DNA of 28,808 nucleotides. Source: Escherichia coli. Its GTDB lineage: Bacteria > Pseudomonadota > Gammaproteobacteria > Enterobacterales > Enterobacteriaceae. Of the stretch, positions 2,117 to 6,100 are shown piece after piece. The notes under the pieces are model-generated. The model had not been told where the DNA came from. It saw only the letters and a list, made by a program, of their open reading frames with translations, and searched no databases. Both the position numbers and the translations under genes were made by a program. How positions within the stretch are numbered: the first letter of the stretch is position 1; every line of letters starts with the position of its first letter. Where the stretch lies: assembly GCF_003334315.1 (NCBI RefSeq), contig NZ_QOWR01000061.1; one strand, given 5' to 3'.

Positions 2117-2950
2117 TTAATTGCTCAAACGCTGCGGATGGGTATAAACCGTTGCCCGACCCGGTTTACAAAAACCTACCAGTGTCAGATTACAGCGCTC
2201 AGCCACTTCTACAGCAAGCGTGGTCGCGGCAGACACCGCAAACAAAATCTCTACGCCGCACATCGCCGACTTTTGCACCATTTCATAACTGGCACGACTG
2301 GAAACCAGTACCGCACCTTGCTGCCAGCTTTCCCCTTCTTGTGACCGGCGGCCTAACAGTTTGTCCAGCGCCACATGGCGACCCACGTCTTCATGCCCGC
2401 CGACCAGTTCGCCAGATGGCAACATCCAGGCAGCGGCGTGAGTACAACCAGTCAGTTGCCCCACTGGCTGAAAATCGTTGAGATGACGTAATGCATCATC
2501 CAGTTTGTTGAGATCAAACGTCTGGGTGAACGGTAGCGGCTGCACCGGTTTTCCGATGTCATTAAGTTGCTCCACGCCGCATACGCCACAGCCCGTACGT
2601 CCCGCCAGCGCCCGGCGGCGCTCCTTCAACCCCATAAAGCGGCGGCTGGAAAGCTCAATTTGTACTTCAAGACCATTACAGGAAGGAACGACATCCATGC
2701 CGAAGATATCGCGCGGACTTTCGATAATCCCCTCGGAAAGCGAAAAACCGAGCGCAAAGTACTCAAGGTCTTTGGGCGACGCCATCATCACCACATGCGA
2801 AATGCCGTTGTAGACCAGCGCAACGGGAACTTCTTCCGCGACCTCATCTAACCGTGGGTGTTGTAAATCATCACGCCGCCATAACTCAATTTGACGAACA
2901 CCTGTGATATTTGTCACATTTTCGATTTCTTTTCGCTGTGTTTTTTTCAC
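2117..2950 (-). CDS. fdhD: Formate dehydrogenase accessory sulfurtransferase FdhD
   Basis: 277-aa ORF recognised as FdhD-family; divergently placed upstream of fdoG as in E. coli. Confidence 0.85.
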
Positions 2951-3143
2951 TTTCTCTTAACCAGATAAGAACACACACACCAACATTATGGTATTCTGTT
3001 ACAAACCCTTCCTGGATGGAGGGAAATTGAGCCAATTCTGGACCTTTGCGGCCCCTTCCGCAAAGAAAAATAACTCCCACTCCCTGCACACGCAGCAAGC
3101 GAATGTAAATGGGACGTGACAATGTCGAAACAAGGAGCAATCC

Positions 3144-6100
3144 ATGCAGGTCAGCAGAAGGCAGTTCTTTAAGATCTGCGCTGGCGGTATGGCAGGCACC
3201 ACGGCAGCGGCACTGGGTTTTGCACCCAGCGTAGCACTCGCGGAAACCCGGCAGTATAAACTGCTGCGCACCCGCGAAACCCGTAATACCTGCACCTATT
3301 GTTCCGTAGGCTGTGGGCTGTTGATGTACAGCCTCGGTGACGGAGCAAAAAACGCCAAAGCATCTATCTTCCATATCGAAGGCGATCCGGATCACCCGGT
3401 CAACCGCGGTGCACTTTGTCCGAAAGGCGCTGGCCTGGTGGATTTCATCCACTCCGAAAGCCGTCTGAAGTTTCCGGAATACCGTGCGCCAGGTTCTGAT
3501 AAATGGCAGCAAATCAGTTGGGAAGAGGCGTTTGATCGCATCGCCAAACTGATGAAAGAAGACCGCGATGCTAACTACATTGCGCAAAACGCCGAAGGCG
3601 TGACTGTTAACCGCTGGCTCTCCACCGGGATGCTGTGTGCTTCCGCGTCGAGTAACGAAACCGGCTATTTAACGCAAAAATTCTCCCGCGCGCTGGGTAT
3701 GCTCGCGGTCGACAACCAGGCGCGTGTCTGACATGGACCAACGGTAGCAAGTCTTGCTCCAACATTTGGTCGCGGTGCGATGACCAACCACTGGGTCGAC
3801 ATCAAGAACGCCAACCTCGTCGTGGTGATGGGCGGTAACGCCGCTGAAGCTCACCCGGTCGGGTTCCGCTGGGCGATGGAAGCCAAAATTCACAACGGCG
3901 CGAAGCTGATTGTGATCGATCCTCGCTTTACGCGTACGGCGGCGGTAGCTGACTACTATGCCCCTATTCGTTCCGGTACTGACATTGCTTTCCTGTCAGG
4001 CGTATTGCTGTACCTGCTGAACAATGAAAAATTCAACCGCGAATACACCGAAGCCTATACCAACGCCAGCCTGATCGTGCGTGAGGATTACGGCTTTGAA
4101 GATGGCCTGTTCACCGGCTACGACGCGGAAAAACGCAAGTACGATAAATCCTCCTGGACTTATGAACTGGACGAAAACGGCTTCGCCAAACGCGATACCA
4201 CGCTGCAACATCCGCGCTGCGTGTGGAACTTGCTGAAACAGCACGTTTCCCGCTACACGCCAGATGTGGTTGAAAACATCTGTGGTACGCCAAAAGACGC
4301 GTTCCTGAAAGTCTGCGAATACATCGCAGAAACCAGTGCTCACGATAAAACTGCCTCGTTCCTGTATGCCCTCGGCTGGACGCAACACTCCGTTGGTGCG
4401 CAAAACATTCGTACGATGGCGATGATCCAGCTGCTGCTCGGCAATATGGGGATGGCAGGCGGCGGCGTTAACGCCCTGCGCGGTCACTCCAATATTCAGG
4501 GGCTGACGGACCTGGGGCTGCTGTCGCAGAGCCTGCCAGGTTACATGACGCTGCCAAGCGAGAAGCAGACCGATCTGCAAACCTACCTTACCGCCAACAC
4601 GCCAAAACCGCTGCTGGAAGGCCAGGTAAACTACTGGGGCAACTACCCGAAATTCTTCGTCTCTATGATGAAGGCCTTCTTTGGTGATAAAGCGACGGCG
4701 GAAAATAGCTGGGGCTTTGACTGGTTGCCGAAGTGGGATAAAGGCTACGACGTCCTGCAATACTTCGAGATGATGAAAGAGGGCAAGGTCAATGGCTATA
4801 TCTGCCAGGGCTTTAACCCTGTTGCCTCATTCCCGAACAAAAACAAAGTGATCGGTTGTCTGTCGAAACTGAAGTTCCTCGTCACCATCGACCCACTGAA
4901 CACTGAAACCTCTAACTTCTGGCAGAACCACGGTGAGCTGAACGAAGTTGACTCGTCGAAGATCCAGACCGAAGTGTTCCGTCTGCCATCGACCTGCTTC
5001 GCGGAAGAGAACGGTTCTATCGTTAACTCAGGTCGCTGGTTACAGTGGCACTGGAAAGGTGCGGACGCCCCGGGGATTGCGCTGACTGACGGCGAGATCC
5101 TCTCCGGTATCTTCCTGCGCTTGCGCAAGATGTATGCCGAACAGGGTGGCGCGAACCCGGACCAGGTGCTGAACATGACATGGAACTACGCCATTCCGCA
5201 TGAGCCATCTTCAGAAGAAGTGGCGATGGAGAGCAACGGTAAGGCGCTGGCCGATATTACCGATCCGGCAACCGGTGCGGTTATCGTCAAGAAAGGCCAA
5301 CAACTTAGTTCGTTCGCCCAATTGCGCGATGACGGTACAACCTCCTGTGGCTGCTGGATTTTCGCCGGTAGCTGGACGCCGGAAGGCAACCAGATGGCAC
5401 GCCGTGATAACGCCGATCCGTCTGGCCTCGGTAACACGCTGGGCTGGGCATGGGCATGGCCGCTTAACCGCCGCATTCTGTATAACCGCGCCTCCGCAGA
5501 TCCGCAGGGTAACCCGTGGGATCCGAAGCGTCAGTTGCTGAAATGGGACGGCACTAAGTGGACCGGCTGGGATATTCCGGACTACAGCGCAGCGCCTCCG
5601 GGTAGCGGCGTCGGGCCGTTTATCATGCAGCAGGAAGGCATGGGGCGTCTGTTTGCCCTCGATAAGATGGCGGAAGGTCCGTTCCCGGAACACTACGAGC
5701 CGTTTGAAACGCCGCTGGGAACTAACCCGCTGCATCCAAACGTTATCTCGAACCCGGCTGCACGTATCTTTAAAGACGACGCCGAAGCATTGGGTAAAGC
5801 CGATAAGTTCCCGTATGTCGGAACCACCTATCGTCTGACCGAGCACTTCCACTACTGGACCAAACACGCGCTGTTGAACGCGATTTTGCAGCCAGAGCAG
5901 TTTGTGGAAATCGGGGAGTCGCTGGCGAATAAACTTGGCATTGCCCAGGGCGATACCGTGAAAGTCTCCTCCAACCGTGGCTATATCAAAGCCAAAGCGG
6001 TGGTGACCAAACGTATTCGCACGCTGAAAGCGAACGGCAAAGATATCGATACCATCGGTATTCCGATTCACTGGGGCTATGAAGGCGTAGCTAAAAAAGG

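Follow-up and report, generated by a model that had tools for sequence, protein, structure and literature searches.

The palindrome located between the divergent fdhD and fdoG genes of Escherichia coli most probably forms an RNA hairpin in the leader of fdoG mRNA and is not a DNA operator, while the neighbouring (AC)5 tract belongs to the promoter spacer and does not serve as a slippage switch. We ascribe to this reading a probability of roughly 0.7. All positions given below refer to the window, i.e. to the whole analysed stretch of 28,808 nucleotides, unless a genomic coordinate is indicated. The fdoG control region is compact and layered: its promoter, of the extended −10 type, is accompanied by a CRP site and an ArcA operator and followed by a 139-nt leader with two conserved hairpins, the same leader carrying pairing sites for at least two small RNAs. 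The biological stakes are moderate, because what is at issue is fine-tuning of one respiratory enzyme.

Promoter of fdoG and its regulators

The stretch 2,951–3,143 is the divergent fdhD-fdoG control region, as the earlier note had supposed. The region coincides letter for letter with 4085700–4086150 of E. coli K-12 MG1655. Coordinates were converted by subtracting the window position from 4088966 (U00096.3), and this rule was cross-checked with annotated gene ends. Scanning of positions 2700–3400 for consensus promoters and terminators gave nothing; the fdoG promoter was missed since it relies on an extended −10, its −35 element being poor, and lies outside the scan rules. It is visible in Reg-Seq, a published saturation mutagenesis with the level of reporter mRNA as a readout and a library covering window positions 2984–3144. 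The only footprint registered there spans −114 to −102 from the zero point 4085867, which corresponds to 2985–2997 after re-mapping, and it was scored as a −10 element under all eight listed conditions. The −35-like hexamer reads GGAACA in most other genera, and GAACA is near-invariant in the alignment of 75 species.

Transcription initiation is placed in the same narrow interval by published data of different origin. The primer used for cloning of the fdoG 5′ UTR in pXG10 begins with ACCCTTCCTGGATGGAG, that is at 3005; the ArcA site described as occupying positions −60 to −29 relative to the mapped fdoG start (Park et al. 2013 supplement) puts this start at 3003/3004; and the distance from the −10 element is consistent with both. 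The fdoG promoter is a sigma-70 promoter of the extended −10 type with the start at about 3005. No −10 footprint was registered by Reg-Seq near the RACE end adopted from RegulonDB (4085867, position 3099), which probably arose by processing and does not mark a promoter, so that the database-derived start of fdoG should probably be corrected. In the lists of the ONT study supplements fdoG transcripts are absent. Features of the region are collected in Table 1.

Table 1. Features of the fdhD-fdoG control region and the fdoG leader (window coordinates)
Feature	Position	Strand	Basis or description
CRP consensus TGTGATATTTGTCACA, perfect match	2903..2918		within the fdhD 5′ coding region
fdhD coding sequence	2117..2950	−	GTG start at 2950; ORF list and MG1655 annotation 4086016-4086849
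ArcA operator, three direct repeats GTGTTCTTATCTGGTTAAGAGAAAGTGAAAAA	2943..2974	−	ChIP-seq peak and site sequence of Park et al. 2013, located in the window
Weak −35-like hexamer AGAACA	2968..2973	+	inferred from its 18-bp spacing to the −10 hexamer
(AC)5 tract ACACACACAC	2971..2980	+	spans −34 to −25 relative to the fdoG start and covers the end of the −35 element plus upstream spacer
fdoG extended −10 TGgTATTCT	2989..2997	+	single Reg-Seq footprint; TGTGGTATTCT near-invariant across 75 species
fdoG transcription start	3003..3005	+	three published lines
fdoG 5′ UTR, 139 nt	3005..3143	+	from the start site and ATG 3144
Hairpin 1, CCUUCC-UGGAU-GGAGGG	3007..3023	+	5′-terminal stem-loop beginning 2 nt away from the 5′ end; −9.6 kcal/mol
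Linker CAAUUCUGGAC (AAUUCUGAAC in most genera)	3033..3043	+	columns of at least 90% identity in the 75-species alignment
Hairpin 2 (palindrome)	3044..3065	+	+40 to +61 of fdoG mRNA; 8-bp stem CUUUGCGG/CCGCAAAG, 6-nt loop
A-rich tail AAAAAUAAC	3066..3074	+	AAA-AAU-AAC directly 3′ of the stem; three A-R-N triplets, four with the stem AAG
RegulonDB RACE 5′ end 4085867	3099..3099	+	adopted as the Reg-Seq zero point
Invariant box GUGACAAUGUCGAAACAAGGAG	3116..3137	+	Shine-Dalgarno 3132-3137, SdhX site (C-13 = 3131), RyhB-complementary stretch
fdoG start codon ATG	3144..3146	+	ORF list; MG1655 annotation of fdoG 4082772-4085822

Formate dehydrogenase O is frequently labelled a constitutive enzyme, and the operon was supposed to be constitutive in the earlier note as well. 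This view is outdated, as fdoG is subject to control at both the promoter and the leader. Its expression rises 6-fold in an arcA mutant, which means repression by ArcA (Park et al. 2013 supplement), and the ArcA operator overlaps the fdhD start codon together with the first 4 nt of (AC)5. The CRP site is centred at about −92.5 to −94.5 relative to the fdoG start, and the same motif TGTGATATTTGTCACA was found under the CRP ChIP-seq peak at (fdhD)/fdoG in ETEC H10407 (PMC4287617), so that CRP may play a role at fdoG. In the leader, pairing of SdhX at fdoG C-13 was proven by compensatory mutagenesis, and fdoG appeared to be the most enriched partner of SdhX on Hfq (PMC6393394). Regulation of fdoG by RyhB has also been reported. 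The best local duplex of RyhB with the leader (−20.6 kcal/mol) falls on GUGACAAUGUCG, though 10% of shuffled leaders reach this value, so that the energy is not significant.

Conserved hairpins of the fdoG leader

The palindrome consists of CTTTGCGG (3044–3051) and CCGCAAAG (3058–3065), which form a perfect 8-bp inverted repeat with the 6-nt spacer CCCCTT. The earlier note was right in recognizing a real inverted repeat about 80 bp upstream of fdoG (its 3′ end is 79 bp upstream of the ATG), while the span of 3044..3066 given there ends one base too far, the 23-mer CCTTTGCGGCCCCTTCCGCAAAG occupying 3043..3065. By count alone both this palindrome and (AC)5 are unremarkable. Perfect 8-bp inverted repeats with loops of 3–8 nt are present at 11 loci of the window (16 overlapping hits) against 3.5 hits per simulated window; the chance expectation for ACACACACAC is 0.03 per window, and that for any dinucleotide repeat of at least five units is 0.36, such repeats being present in 32% of first-order Markov simulations. 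Significance of the palindrome stems, therefore, from its conservation and covariation across species and not from its count.

In 75 species of Enterobacteriaceae 94.7% of cells in the stem of hairpin 2 are paired, and five of its eight pairs are changed on both sides in a compensatory manner. The covariation score of 0.202 was reached by none of 500 shuffles, which gave 0.141, and exceeds the range of slid controls (0.07–0.115); the picture of pairing and covariation remained the same in a model-fitted alignment. Comparison of these sequences indicates that the palindrome is under selection. Hairpin 2 is the sole helix predicted by RNAalifold unaided, and it is present in the minimum-energy fold of every species inspected. 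Its folding energy on the plus strand is −11.7 kcal/mol (z −2.9), and according to partition-function folding it is paired in the full leader with the probability of about 0.99 at any temperature from 20 to 45 °C. The loop varies freely in sequence and ranges from 5 to 11 nt in length: 59 of 68 distinct sequences have a spacer of 6 nt, while 5 or 11 nt were found in the other nine (seven and two, respectively). Being transcribed and covarying beyond controls, hairpin 2 has the properties expected for a structured RNA element. The palindrome is transcribed as a part of the 139-nt leader and folds there as a stable autonomous 8-bp stem-loop.

Several other explanations of the element were considered and rejected. 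In each of 5,393 genomes the 38-mer containing the palindrome has a single location, model R1 also giving a single match in the window, and this single copy excludes a repeat of the REP/BIME type. Nothing resembling an intrinsic terminator was found on either strand between 2700 and 3400; downstream of the stem the plus strand has A's and the minus strand GGUCCAG. A small leader ORF (TTG at 3027, in frame with a 43-aa ORF) was discarded, as neither its start codon nor its frame is conserved. Participation of hairpin 2 in anti-Shine-Dalgarno or anti-anti-Shine-Dalgarno switching was dismissed too, since breaking its arms in silico gave accessibilities of the Shine-Dalgarno sequence of 0.33–0.52 against 0.46.

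For the 5′-terminal hairpin 1 the model-fitted alignment shows 77% of cells paired and a change of both partners in five of six pairs. Together with hairpin 2 it constitutes a two-hairpin architecture of the leader preserved across Enterobacteriaceae. The linker between them is unpaired in most predicted folds. Its pairing (3031–3045) with fdoG codons 2–7 was seen in one fold and was rejected, as it disappears when more of the 3′ context is included and in most species; such pairing also leaves no room for covariation, the coding sequence being invariant. The tail is rich in A in every species, the 12 nt following hairpin 2 containing on average 63% of A. Motifs of the (ARN)n type are distal-face binding sites of Hfq. 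The tail at 3066..3074 offers at least three A-R-N triplets in single-stranded RNA and may be regarded as a candidate site of this kind, the ARN register being kept only partly beyond Escherichia, Citrobacter and Salmonella.

Hairpin 2 might serve as a structural module, which would hold the conserved flanks single-stranded and expose the A-rich (ARN)3-4 tail, and the exposed tail would seat Hfq 50–70 nt upstream of the sites where the Hfq-dependent SdhX and RyhB repress the translation of fdoG. Such a module is our leading, though tentative, guess, and we give the Hfq-docking role by itself rather less than an even chance; a contribution of hairpin 2 to mRNA stability may be a close alternative. 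In Reg-Seq the level of reporter mRNA was not affected by mutations in either hairpin under eight conditions, and this null result argues against a strong role in stability as well as against an operator. Point mutations seldom destroy a GC-rich 8-bp stem, and Reg-Seq reads out mRNA and not translation. Since the palindrome is located in RNA, its effect would be missed by transcriptional fusions and by Reg-Seq.

Leaders of the ompA type combine 5′-terminal and internal stem-loops with single-stranded segments, to which Hfq binds or at which RNase E cleaves. The fdoG leader resembles them in its length of about 135–140 nt, in the hairpin that starts no more than 2 nt from the 5′ end, in the second autonomous hairpin, in the single-stranded A-rich segments between structures and in Hfq-dependent control by small RNAs. 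It differs from them by the lack of sequence similarity, and in Reg-Seq neither of its hairpins affected the mRNA level. With (ARN)n modules of the rpoS-leader type the fdoG tail shares its position next to a stable helix, at a distance of tens of nucleotides upstream from where the small RNA pairs, and the location in an mRNA that is a proven target of Hfq-dependent small RNAs, whereas the candidate tract of fdoG is short (3–4 triplets) and only partly conserved in its register.

A bolder proposal is that the whole leader module (two hairpins, linker and A-rich tail) represents a dedicated cis-regulatory RNA element kept across Enterobacteriaceae, possibly homologous to an Rfam element of Yersinia, which might recruit Hfq or CsrA and set the translation of FdoG according to iron, carbon or oxygen status. 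We consider this speculative, with the odds against it. To our knowledge, a dedicated RNA element of this kind has not been described for the fdoG leader of E. coli. With respect to CsrA, it can be mentioned that GGA is present in the loop of hairpin 1 (in 50 of 70 distinct sequences) and that further GGA motifs occur in the linker and in the Shine-Dalgarno sequence.

Other readings of the palindrome

The Rfam scan at the gathering threshold detected only the SECIS element; FdoG is a selenoprotein. In the relaxed scan, apart from a match to MicC dismissed as chance, the sole match in the region was RF02778 (FdoG1_thermometer), which covers 2937–3173 on the plus strand at full model length with 36.5 bits (E = 9.7e-8) and remains below the gathering score of 50. 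This family is a candidate RNA thermometer described from the fdoG 5′ UTR of Yersinia pseudotuberculosis, and the E. coli leader including hairpin 2 could be its counterpart, in which translation would be controlled by temperature-dependent melting. The gene, the strand and the position in the leader are common to both, the Shine-Dalgarno and start regions are near-identical, and the helix UUUAgCGCu...GCGcGaa of the model resembles, in our reading, UUUGCGG...CCGCAAA of the palindrome. However, the score is gained mostly from the Shine-Dalgarno and coding-start segment, while the palindrome itself falls into an unaligned 53-nt insertion of the match, which begins inside fdhD, upstream of the E. 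coli fdoG start, and ends 30 nt into fdoG. Moreover, on warming from 20 to 45 °C the predicted probability for the Shine-Dalgarno sequence to be unpaired increases by little, from 0.42 to 0.50, while about 99% pairing is predicted for hairpin 2 throughout. We regard a thermometer at this place of the E. coli genome as improbable.

The earlier note considered the palindrome as a possible binding site of a regulator. In this case a dimeric transcription factor would recognize TTTGCGG-N6-CCGCAAA in DNA about 40–60 bp past the fdoG start and either block elongation or loop to the promoter. The repeat is perfect over 8 bp, and the strong conservation of its half-sites TTTGCGG/CCGCAAA, together with the prevalence of the 6-nt spacer, would look the same for a DNA site. 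In addition, the main text of the Reg-Seq study ascribes a “repressor-binding site” to the main promoter, and a peak of RpoN was reported by genomic SELEX somewhere in the fdhD-fdoG spacer. The repressor site is, however, absent from both curated and raw tables of that study, which contain no activator or repressor footprint at −55 to −34 under eight conditions, and a sigma-54 promoter under the RpoN peak was rejected, as no canonical, correctly spaced −24/−12 motif could be found on reading the sequence. ChIP data located for the region map ArcA to 2943–2974 and CRP to 2903–2918, neither being on the palindrome. Symmetric double changes preserve complementarity at the expense of one to three bases that a protein would recognize: G-C is replaced by A-T in three Citrobacter species, and the half-sites become CTTCGTC/GACGAAG in Kluyvera. 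An operator would also have to tolerate a spacer of 5 to 11 nt. An RNA hairpin fits better than an operator owing to the position downstream of the transcription start and inside the transcribed leader, the compensatory changes with a free loop and the missing footprint, which makes the operator quite unlikely.

Folding of the palindrome on the opposite strand deserves separate discussion. A minus-strand promoter of fdhD, TCGACA-15-TACATT, was proposed from genomic SELEX with RpoD, and if fdhD were transcribed from near 3102–3128, the hairpin would act in a long fdhD leader. The proposed sequence does occur on the minus strand, and the fold is equally good there (−12.6 kcal/mol). Counted in internal pairs, 14 G-U wobbles are valid on the plus strand against four on the minus strand, which favours the plus strand, but with terminal pairs included the numbers are 18 and 20 and do not separate the strands. 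Since wobbles are weak evidence and the energies are equal, assignment to the plus strand rests on the transcription-start data. The U-G pair in hairpin 1 of E. coli is valid on the plus strand only. As for the SELEX promoter, it was guessed from the sequence inside a peak of low resolution, and the paper gives identical hexamers for both genes; its −10 part lacks conservation, and leaders of the Klebsiella type do not contain the segment. Taken together, these data leave a minus-strand hairpin very little probability.

That the palindrome is a functionless chance repeat in a conserved promoter-proximal region is scarcely credible: although some 3.5 perfect 8-bp repeats are expected per window and no phenotype was registered in Reg-Seq, it persists in 75 species, in which neighbouring segments of the leader (3075–3115) diverge or are deleted, and its compensatory changes exceed those of both shuffled and slid controls.

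The (AC)5 tract as a part of the promoter spacer

The tract was placed exactly by the earlier note, at 2971..2980. On the fdhD side it reads (GU)5 and occupies positions 21–30 upstream of the GTG start codon, outside every coding sequence and adjoining the ArcA operator. The suggestion that it is a potential slipped-strand site was not borne out by the genome survey. The 80-mer around (AC)5 was found in 5,425 of 5,426 complete E. coli genomes, in 4,079 of them as an exact match. Five AC units are present in 5,422 genomes of the 5,425 (99.9%); the remaining three carry (AC)6, which arose in two independent events, as judged by lineages differing in the FdhD allele, and neither (AC)4 nor (AC)7 occurs in this set. 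Comparison of copy number among strains, proposed in the earlier note as a check, revealed essential invariance, the very outcome named there as speaking against slippage. For the idea that this dinucleotide repeat is a hotspot of variation the survey gives a clear negative.

Related genera preserve the length of the tract and not the repeat. Instead, ACACGCATAC, ACAGGCATAC or ACAAGCCTAC of equal length is found in Citrobacter, Klebsiella, Kluyvera and others, and in most other genera the position is taken by ACACGCATAC, i.e. by a sequence without the repeat. The distance from GAACA to the −10 element is free of indels in nearly all 75 species (exceptions include L033). The length of the tract is probably set by promoter geometry, with (AC)5 making up the promoter-distal portion of the spacer at fdoG, and the perfect repeat of Escherichia probably arose via point substitutions.

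A contingency switch, in which slippage of (AC)5 would alter promoter spacing and tune fdoG and/or fdhD between strains or within populations, has in its favour the location of the repeat in the −35/spacer region of fdoG and upstream of fdhD, where expression may be sensitive to length, and the fact that slippage does happen. Five units are, however, short for a hypermutable dinucleotide tract of a contingency locus, and extended −10 promoters depend little on the spacing of the −35 element; we count both points against such a switch, along with the near-fixed copy number in E. coli and the loss of the repeat, though not of its length, in relatives. This possibility can practically be set aside: (AC)5 slips rarely and is not a phase-variation switch. 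In its promoter location the tract is similar to dinucleotide repeats between −35 and −10 of fimbrial and porin promoters of Haemophilus and Neisseria, and it is unlike them in having five units, a near-fixed copy number and no repeat in sister genera.

The divergent fdhD–fdoG spacer and its two motifs

Both motifs reported in the earlier note, an (AC)5 tract and a palindrome about 80 bp upstream of fdoG, were found at their places in the divergent fdhD–fdoG region, which had been identified correctly; from the 3' end of the palindrome to the ATG there are 79 bp. The MG1655 segment 4085700-4086150 is contained exactly in the window, so the region around the motifs is that of E. coli K-12, and a search of E. 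coli genomes gave 100% matches to many K-12 derivatives. The intergenic spacer comprises 193 bp. On count alone neither motif is remarkable: 0.36 dinucleotide repeats of at least five units are expected per window, and perfect 8-bp inverted repeats with short loops arise by chance about 3.5 times per simulated window versus 16 overlapping ones (11 loci) observed.

Features of the fdhD–fdoG region in window coordinates
Feature	Position	Strand	Remark
CRP consensus TGTGATATTTGTCACA	2903-2918		perfect; within fdhD codons 11-16
ArcA site GTGTTCTTATCTGGTTAAGAGAAAGTGAAAAA	2974 to 2943		from -60 to -29 relative to the mapped start of fdoG
fdhD start	2950	minus	GTG
(AC)5 tract ACACACACAC	2971-2980		exact; -34 to -25 relative to the fdoG start
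fdoG leader	3005-3143		139 nt
Hairpin 1 (5'-terminal)	3007-3023		in E. coli; begins 2 nt after the start
Conserved linker AAUUCUG(A/G)ACC			between hairpin 1 and the palindrome
Palindrome (hairpin 2 as RNA) CTTTGCGG / CCGCAAAG	3044-3051 and 3058-3065		perfect inverted repeat, 6-nt spacer; +40 to +61 of the leader
C-rich, G-poor segment CUCCCACUCCCUGCACACGCAGCAAGCG	3075-3115		between hairpin 2 and the Shine-Dalgarno box
Shine-Dalgarno box GUGACAAUGUCGAAACAAGGAG	3116-3137		(nearly) invariant across 75 species
fdoG start	3144	+	ATG
fdoG in-frame UGA and SECIS element	3726-3784		

In the RefSeq/PGAP annotation of the E. coli matches H1-H40 (window 2930-3160) the gene divergent from fdhD is called "fdnG: formate dehydrogenase-N subunit alpha", and in the MG1655 record the same gene is fdoG, formate dehydrogenase O. 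The former label is a systematic paralogue misnaming in the RefSeq/PGAP E. coli genomes listed. This chromosomal spacer has 5,425 matches, two of which sit on plasmid-typed records, and one complete E. coli genome lacks the region altogether.

The fdoG promoter and the (AC)5 tract

A consensus promoter scan detected no promoter at the locus, and the transcription start was placed from published data re-mapped onto the window, three independent lines of which were concordant. Reg-Seq (Ireland et al. 2020) mutagenized the region from -115 to +45 around the RegulonDB RACE end 4085867 (window 3099) and registered nothing but a -10 element, from -114 to -102 (window 2985-2997), in 8/8 listed conditions; the sequence there reads TGgTATTCT, an extended -10. 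The ArcA site mapped by ChIP-seq (Park et al. 2013) was located in the window by its sequence, and its distance from the start puts the latter at 3003/3004. The E. coli fdoG 5' UTR clone of the SdhX study (Miyakoshi et al. 2019) starts with ACCCTTCCTGGATGGAG (window 3005), and that of Salmonella was cloned from the homologous base. The extent of the leader follows from the agreement of these lines. The RACE "TSS cluster" at 3099, which Reg-Seq took for the start of fdoGHI-fdhE, shows no -10 footprint, the only footprint lying 102-114 bp upstream; the cluster is probably a processed 5' end or processing product. Four putative small RNAs were reported over the beginning of fdoG, approximately window 3005 onward (U00096.3 about 4,085,8xx-4,085,96x, minus strand), in a nanopore transcript study (DMEM; full-length fdoG not transcribed). 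These RNAs may be stable fragments of the leader or products of premature termination.

The operon, supposed to be constitutive, is in fact repressed 6-fold by ArcA (Park et al. 2013), and sigma-70 occupancy at fdoG drops anaerobically. The CRP site, covered by a CRP ChIP-seq peak in ETEC H10407, is centred at about -92.5 to -94.5 relative to the fdoG start, which is the distance of a class I activator site. Some Citrobacter species preserve the site exactly, others only in degraded form.

The (AC)5 tract takes up the end of a weak -35-like AGAACA and the upstream part of the promoter spacer, its first four bases falling within the ArcA operator. Repeat number was surveyed in 5,426 complete E. 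coli genomes, of which 5,425 contain the 80-mer spanning the tract: an exact copy in 4,079, one with substitutions (C2956A in ST131, for instance) in the remainder. Altered-repeat queries returned (AC)6 from only three genomes, LSN03-016011/A and the near-identical pair 23CRST047 and 23CRST049, and no (AC)4 or (AC)7 allele among those surveyed. Since the two (AC)6 lineages carry different FdhD alleles, two independent slippage events took place. The tract slips at the low rate expected of five units and is no switch; lying outside any coding sequence, it cannot produce frameshift-type phase variation, and its proposed role as a slipped-strand site found no support. The same ten positions read ACACGCATAC, ACAGGCATAC, ACAAGCCTAC and similar in 75 other Enterobacteriaceae species, nearly all of which have no indel between GAACA and the -10 element (exceptions include the retrieved locus L033). 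(AC)5 is a length-constrained promoter spacer that in Escherichia forms a perfect repeat by happenstance.

A conserved stem-loop in the fdoG leader

Loci retrieved from 80 species preserve the divergent arrangement in all 77 cases reaching the fdoG start, the other three having too little upstream DNA, and the spacer is better conserved across species than the 5' end of the fdhD coding sequence. The loci share one architecture: extended -10, hairpin, linker, palindrome and A-rich tail. The palindrome keeps its stem with a loop free to change (CCCCTT, TCCCGT, GCATAT, GCCCGC, AAAACCAC; 11 nt in Lelliottia and Enterobacter chuandaensis). Compensatory changes are G3048A with C3061T in three Citrobacter species and the Kluyvera stem CUUCGUC/GACGAAG. 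In the MAFFT alignment 94.7% of stem cells are paired and five of eight pairs have changed on both sides, with a covariation score of 0.202 against 0.141 for shuffles (0/500 reach 0.202) and 0.07-0.115 for slid partners. RNAalifold predicted this helix and no other. Covariance model re-alignment gave the same numbers and supported hairpin 1, where both sides changed in 5/6 pairs. Hairpin 2 is present in the minimum-energy fold of every species inspected, and its pairing probability in the full E. coli leader is ~0.99 between 20 and 45 °C. Among 5,425 E. coli genomes, 5,389 carry an exact copy of the 38-mer that includes the palindrome, and the one variant read, G3041A, lies outside the stem. 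The palindrome is a conserved 5' UTR stem-loop, uncharacterised but of an ordinary kind, in a well conserved promoter and leader. Being single-copy, it is not a REP-type element, and being followed by A's and no U's, it is not a terminator.

The suggestion that the palindrome binds a regulator as DNA is not supported, and the results favour a selected RNA structure: the repeat lies inside the transcript, its loop varies in length, symmetric substitutions preserve pairing and alter protein-readable bases, and Reg-Seq registered no footprint over it (-55 to -34 in that numbering). In favour of an operator, the half-sites are well conserved with a 6-nt spacer in most species, point mutations in Reg-Seq were perhaps too mild for a visible effect, and its main text names a repressor site at this promoter, absent from its own tables. 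Both strands fold equally well; internal-pair wobbles number 14 for the + strand versus 4, a difference cancelled by the end pairs. As pairs alone do not settle the strand, assignment to the + strand rests on the transcription-start data. A minus-strand promoter at 3128 to 3102, proposed from RpoD SELEX, was guessed from the sequence and lacks conservation.

The only matching Rfam family is RF02778, a fdoG 5' UTR thermometer candidate of Yersinia. It aligns to the E. coli region on the correct strand over the full model length, but scores 36.5 bits against a threshold of 50, mostly from the Shine-Dalgarno and start region, and leaves the palindrome in an unaligned insertion; the E. coli leader was therefore not filed as a member. 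The family helix UUUAgCGCu...GCGcGaa may be a homologue of hairpin 2. Folding from 20 to 45 °C predicted no thermometer-like melting of the E. coli leader.

Possible roles and variation of the leader

The fdoG leader is an established point of post-transcriptional control. In E. coli, SdhX pairs with the fdoG leader around C-13 (window 3131) and thereby represses the gene, as proven by compensatory mutation; no other SdhX partner is as enriched on Hfq as fdoG, which RyhB regulates as well. Hairpin 2 may act as a stable autonomous module that would chiefly serve to keep the conserved sequences on either side of it single-stranded. Three to four A-R-N triplets, a motif that Hfq binds with its distal face, make up the tail AAAAAUAAC, and A-richness 3' of the stem is common to all species (mean 63% A). 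We tentatively prefer, with a probability of about 0.3, to read hairpin 2 and its tail as a module on which Hfq would dock, 50-70 nt upstream of where the sRNAs pair. A close second would be mRNA stabilization by hairpin 2 and the 5'-terminal hairpin jointly, in the manner of ompA-type leaders, although a strong role of this kind is at odds with Reg-Seq, where no mRNA-level effect was seen. Disruption of either arm in silico barely altered Shine-Dalgarno accessibility, which argues against simple translational masking.

Besides the Shine-Dalgarno sequence and the proven SdhX site, the conserved box holds a MazF ACA site 14 nt from the AUG and GUGA-CAAUGUCG, whose complement, save for one bulge, is RyhB nt 37-49. 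The best local duplex computed with RyhB falls here (-20.6 kcal/mol, a score equalled by 10% of shuffled leaders). GGA motifs occupy the hairpin 1 loop (UGGAU, 3013-3017), the linker (CUGGAC, 3040-3042) and the Shine-Dalgarno sequence (AAGGAG, 3135-3137), a pattern similar to that of CsrA targets; no data on CsrA at fdoG were found. Of 70 distinct sequences, 50 have a GGA within the hairpin 1 loop or next to it.

Kosakonia and relatives (L027:2254-2470; L021, L024, L025, L028, L039) carry a tandem duplication ~85 bp upstream, the unit of which includes the fdoG promoter -10 (TGGTATTCT), hairpin 1 and the AUUCUGAACC linker. A second, weaker covariance model match was obtained in L027 and L028 (26-27 bits), and the duplication may provide two tandem promoters. 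In Kluyvera, Pseudocitrobacter, Lelliottia and related loci (L056, L057, L060, L062, L064, L066, L069-L074, L076, L078) the spacer is 415-465 bp long, with an extra ~240 bp between fdhD and the fdoG promoter that holds no ORF > 42 aa (L056). The C-rich, G-poor segment is specific to leaders of the Escherichia/Citrobacter/Salmonella type; those of the Klebsiella type lack it and are ~40 nt shorter.
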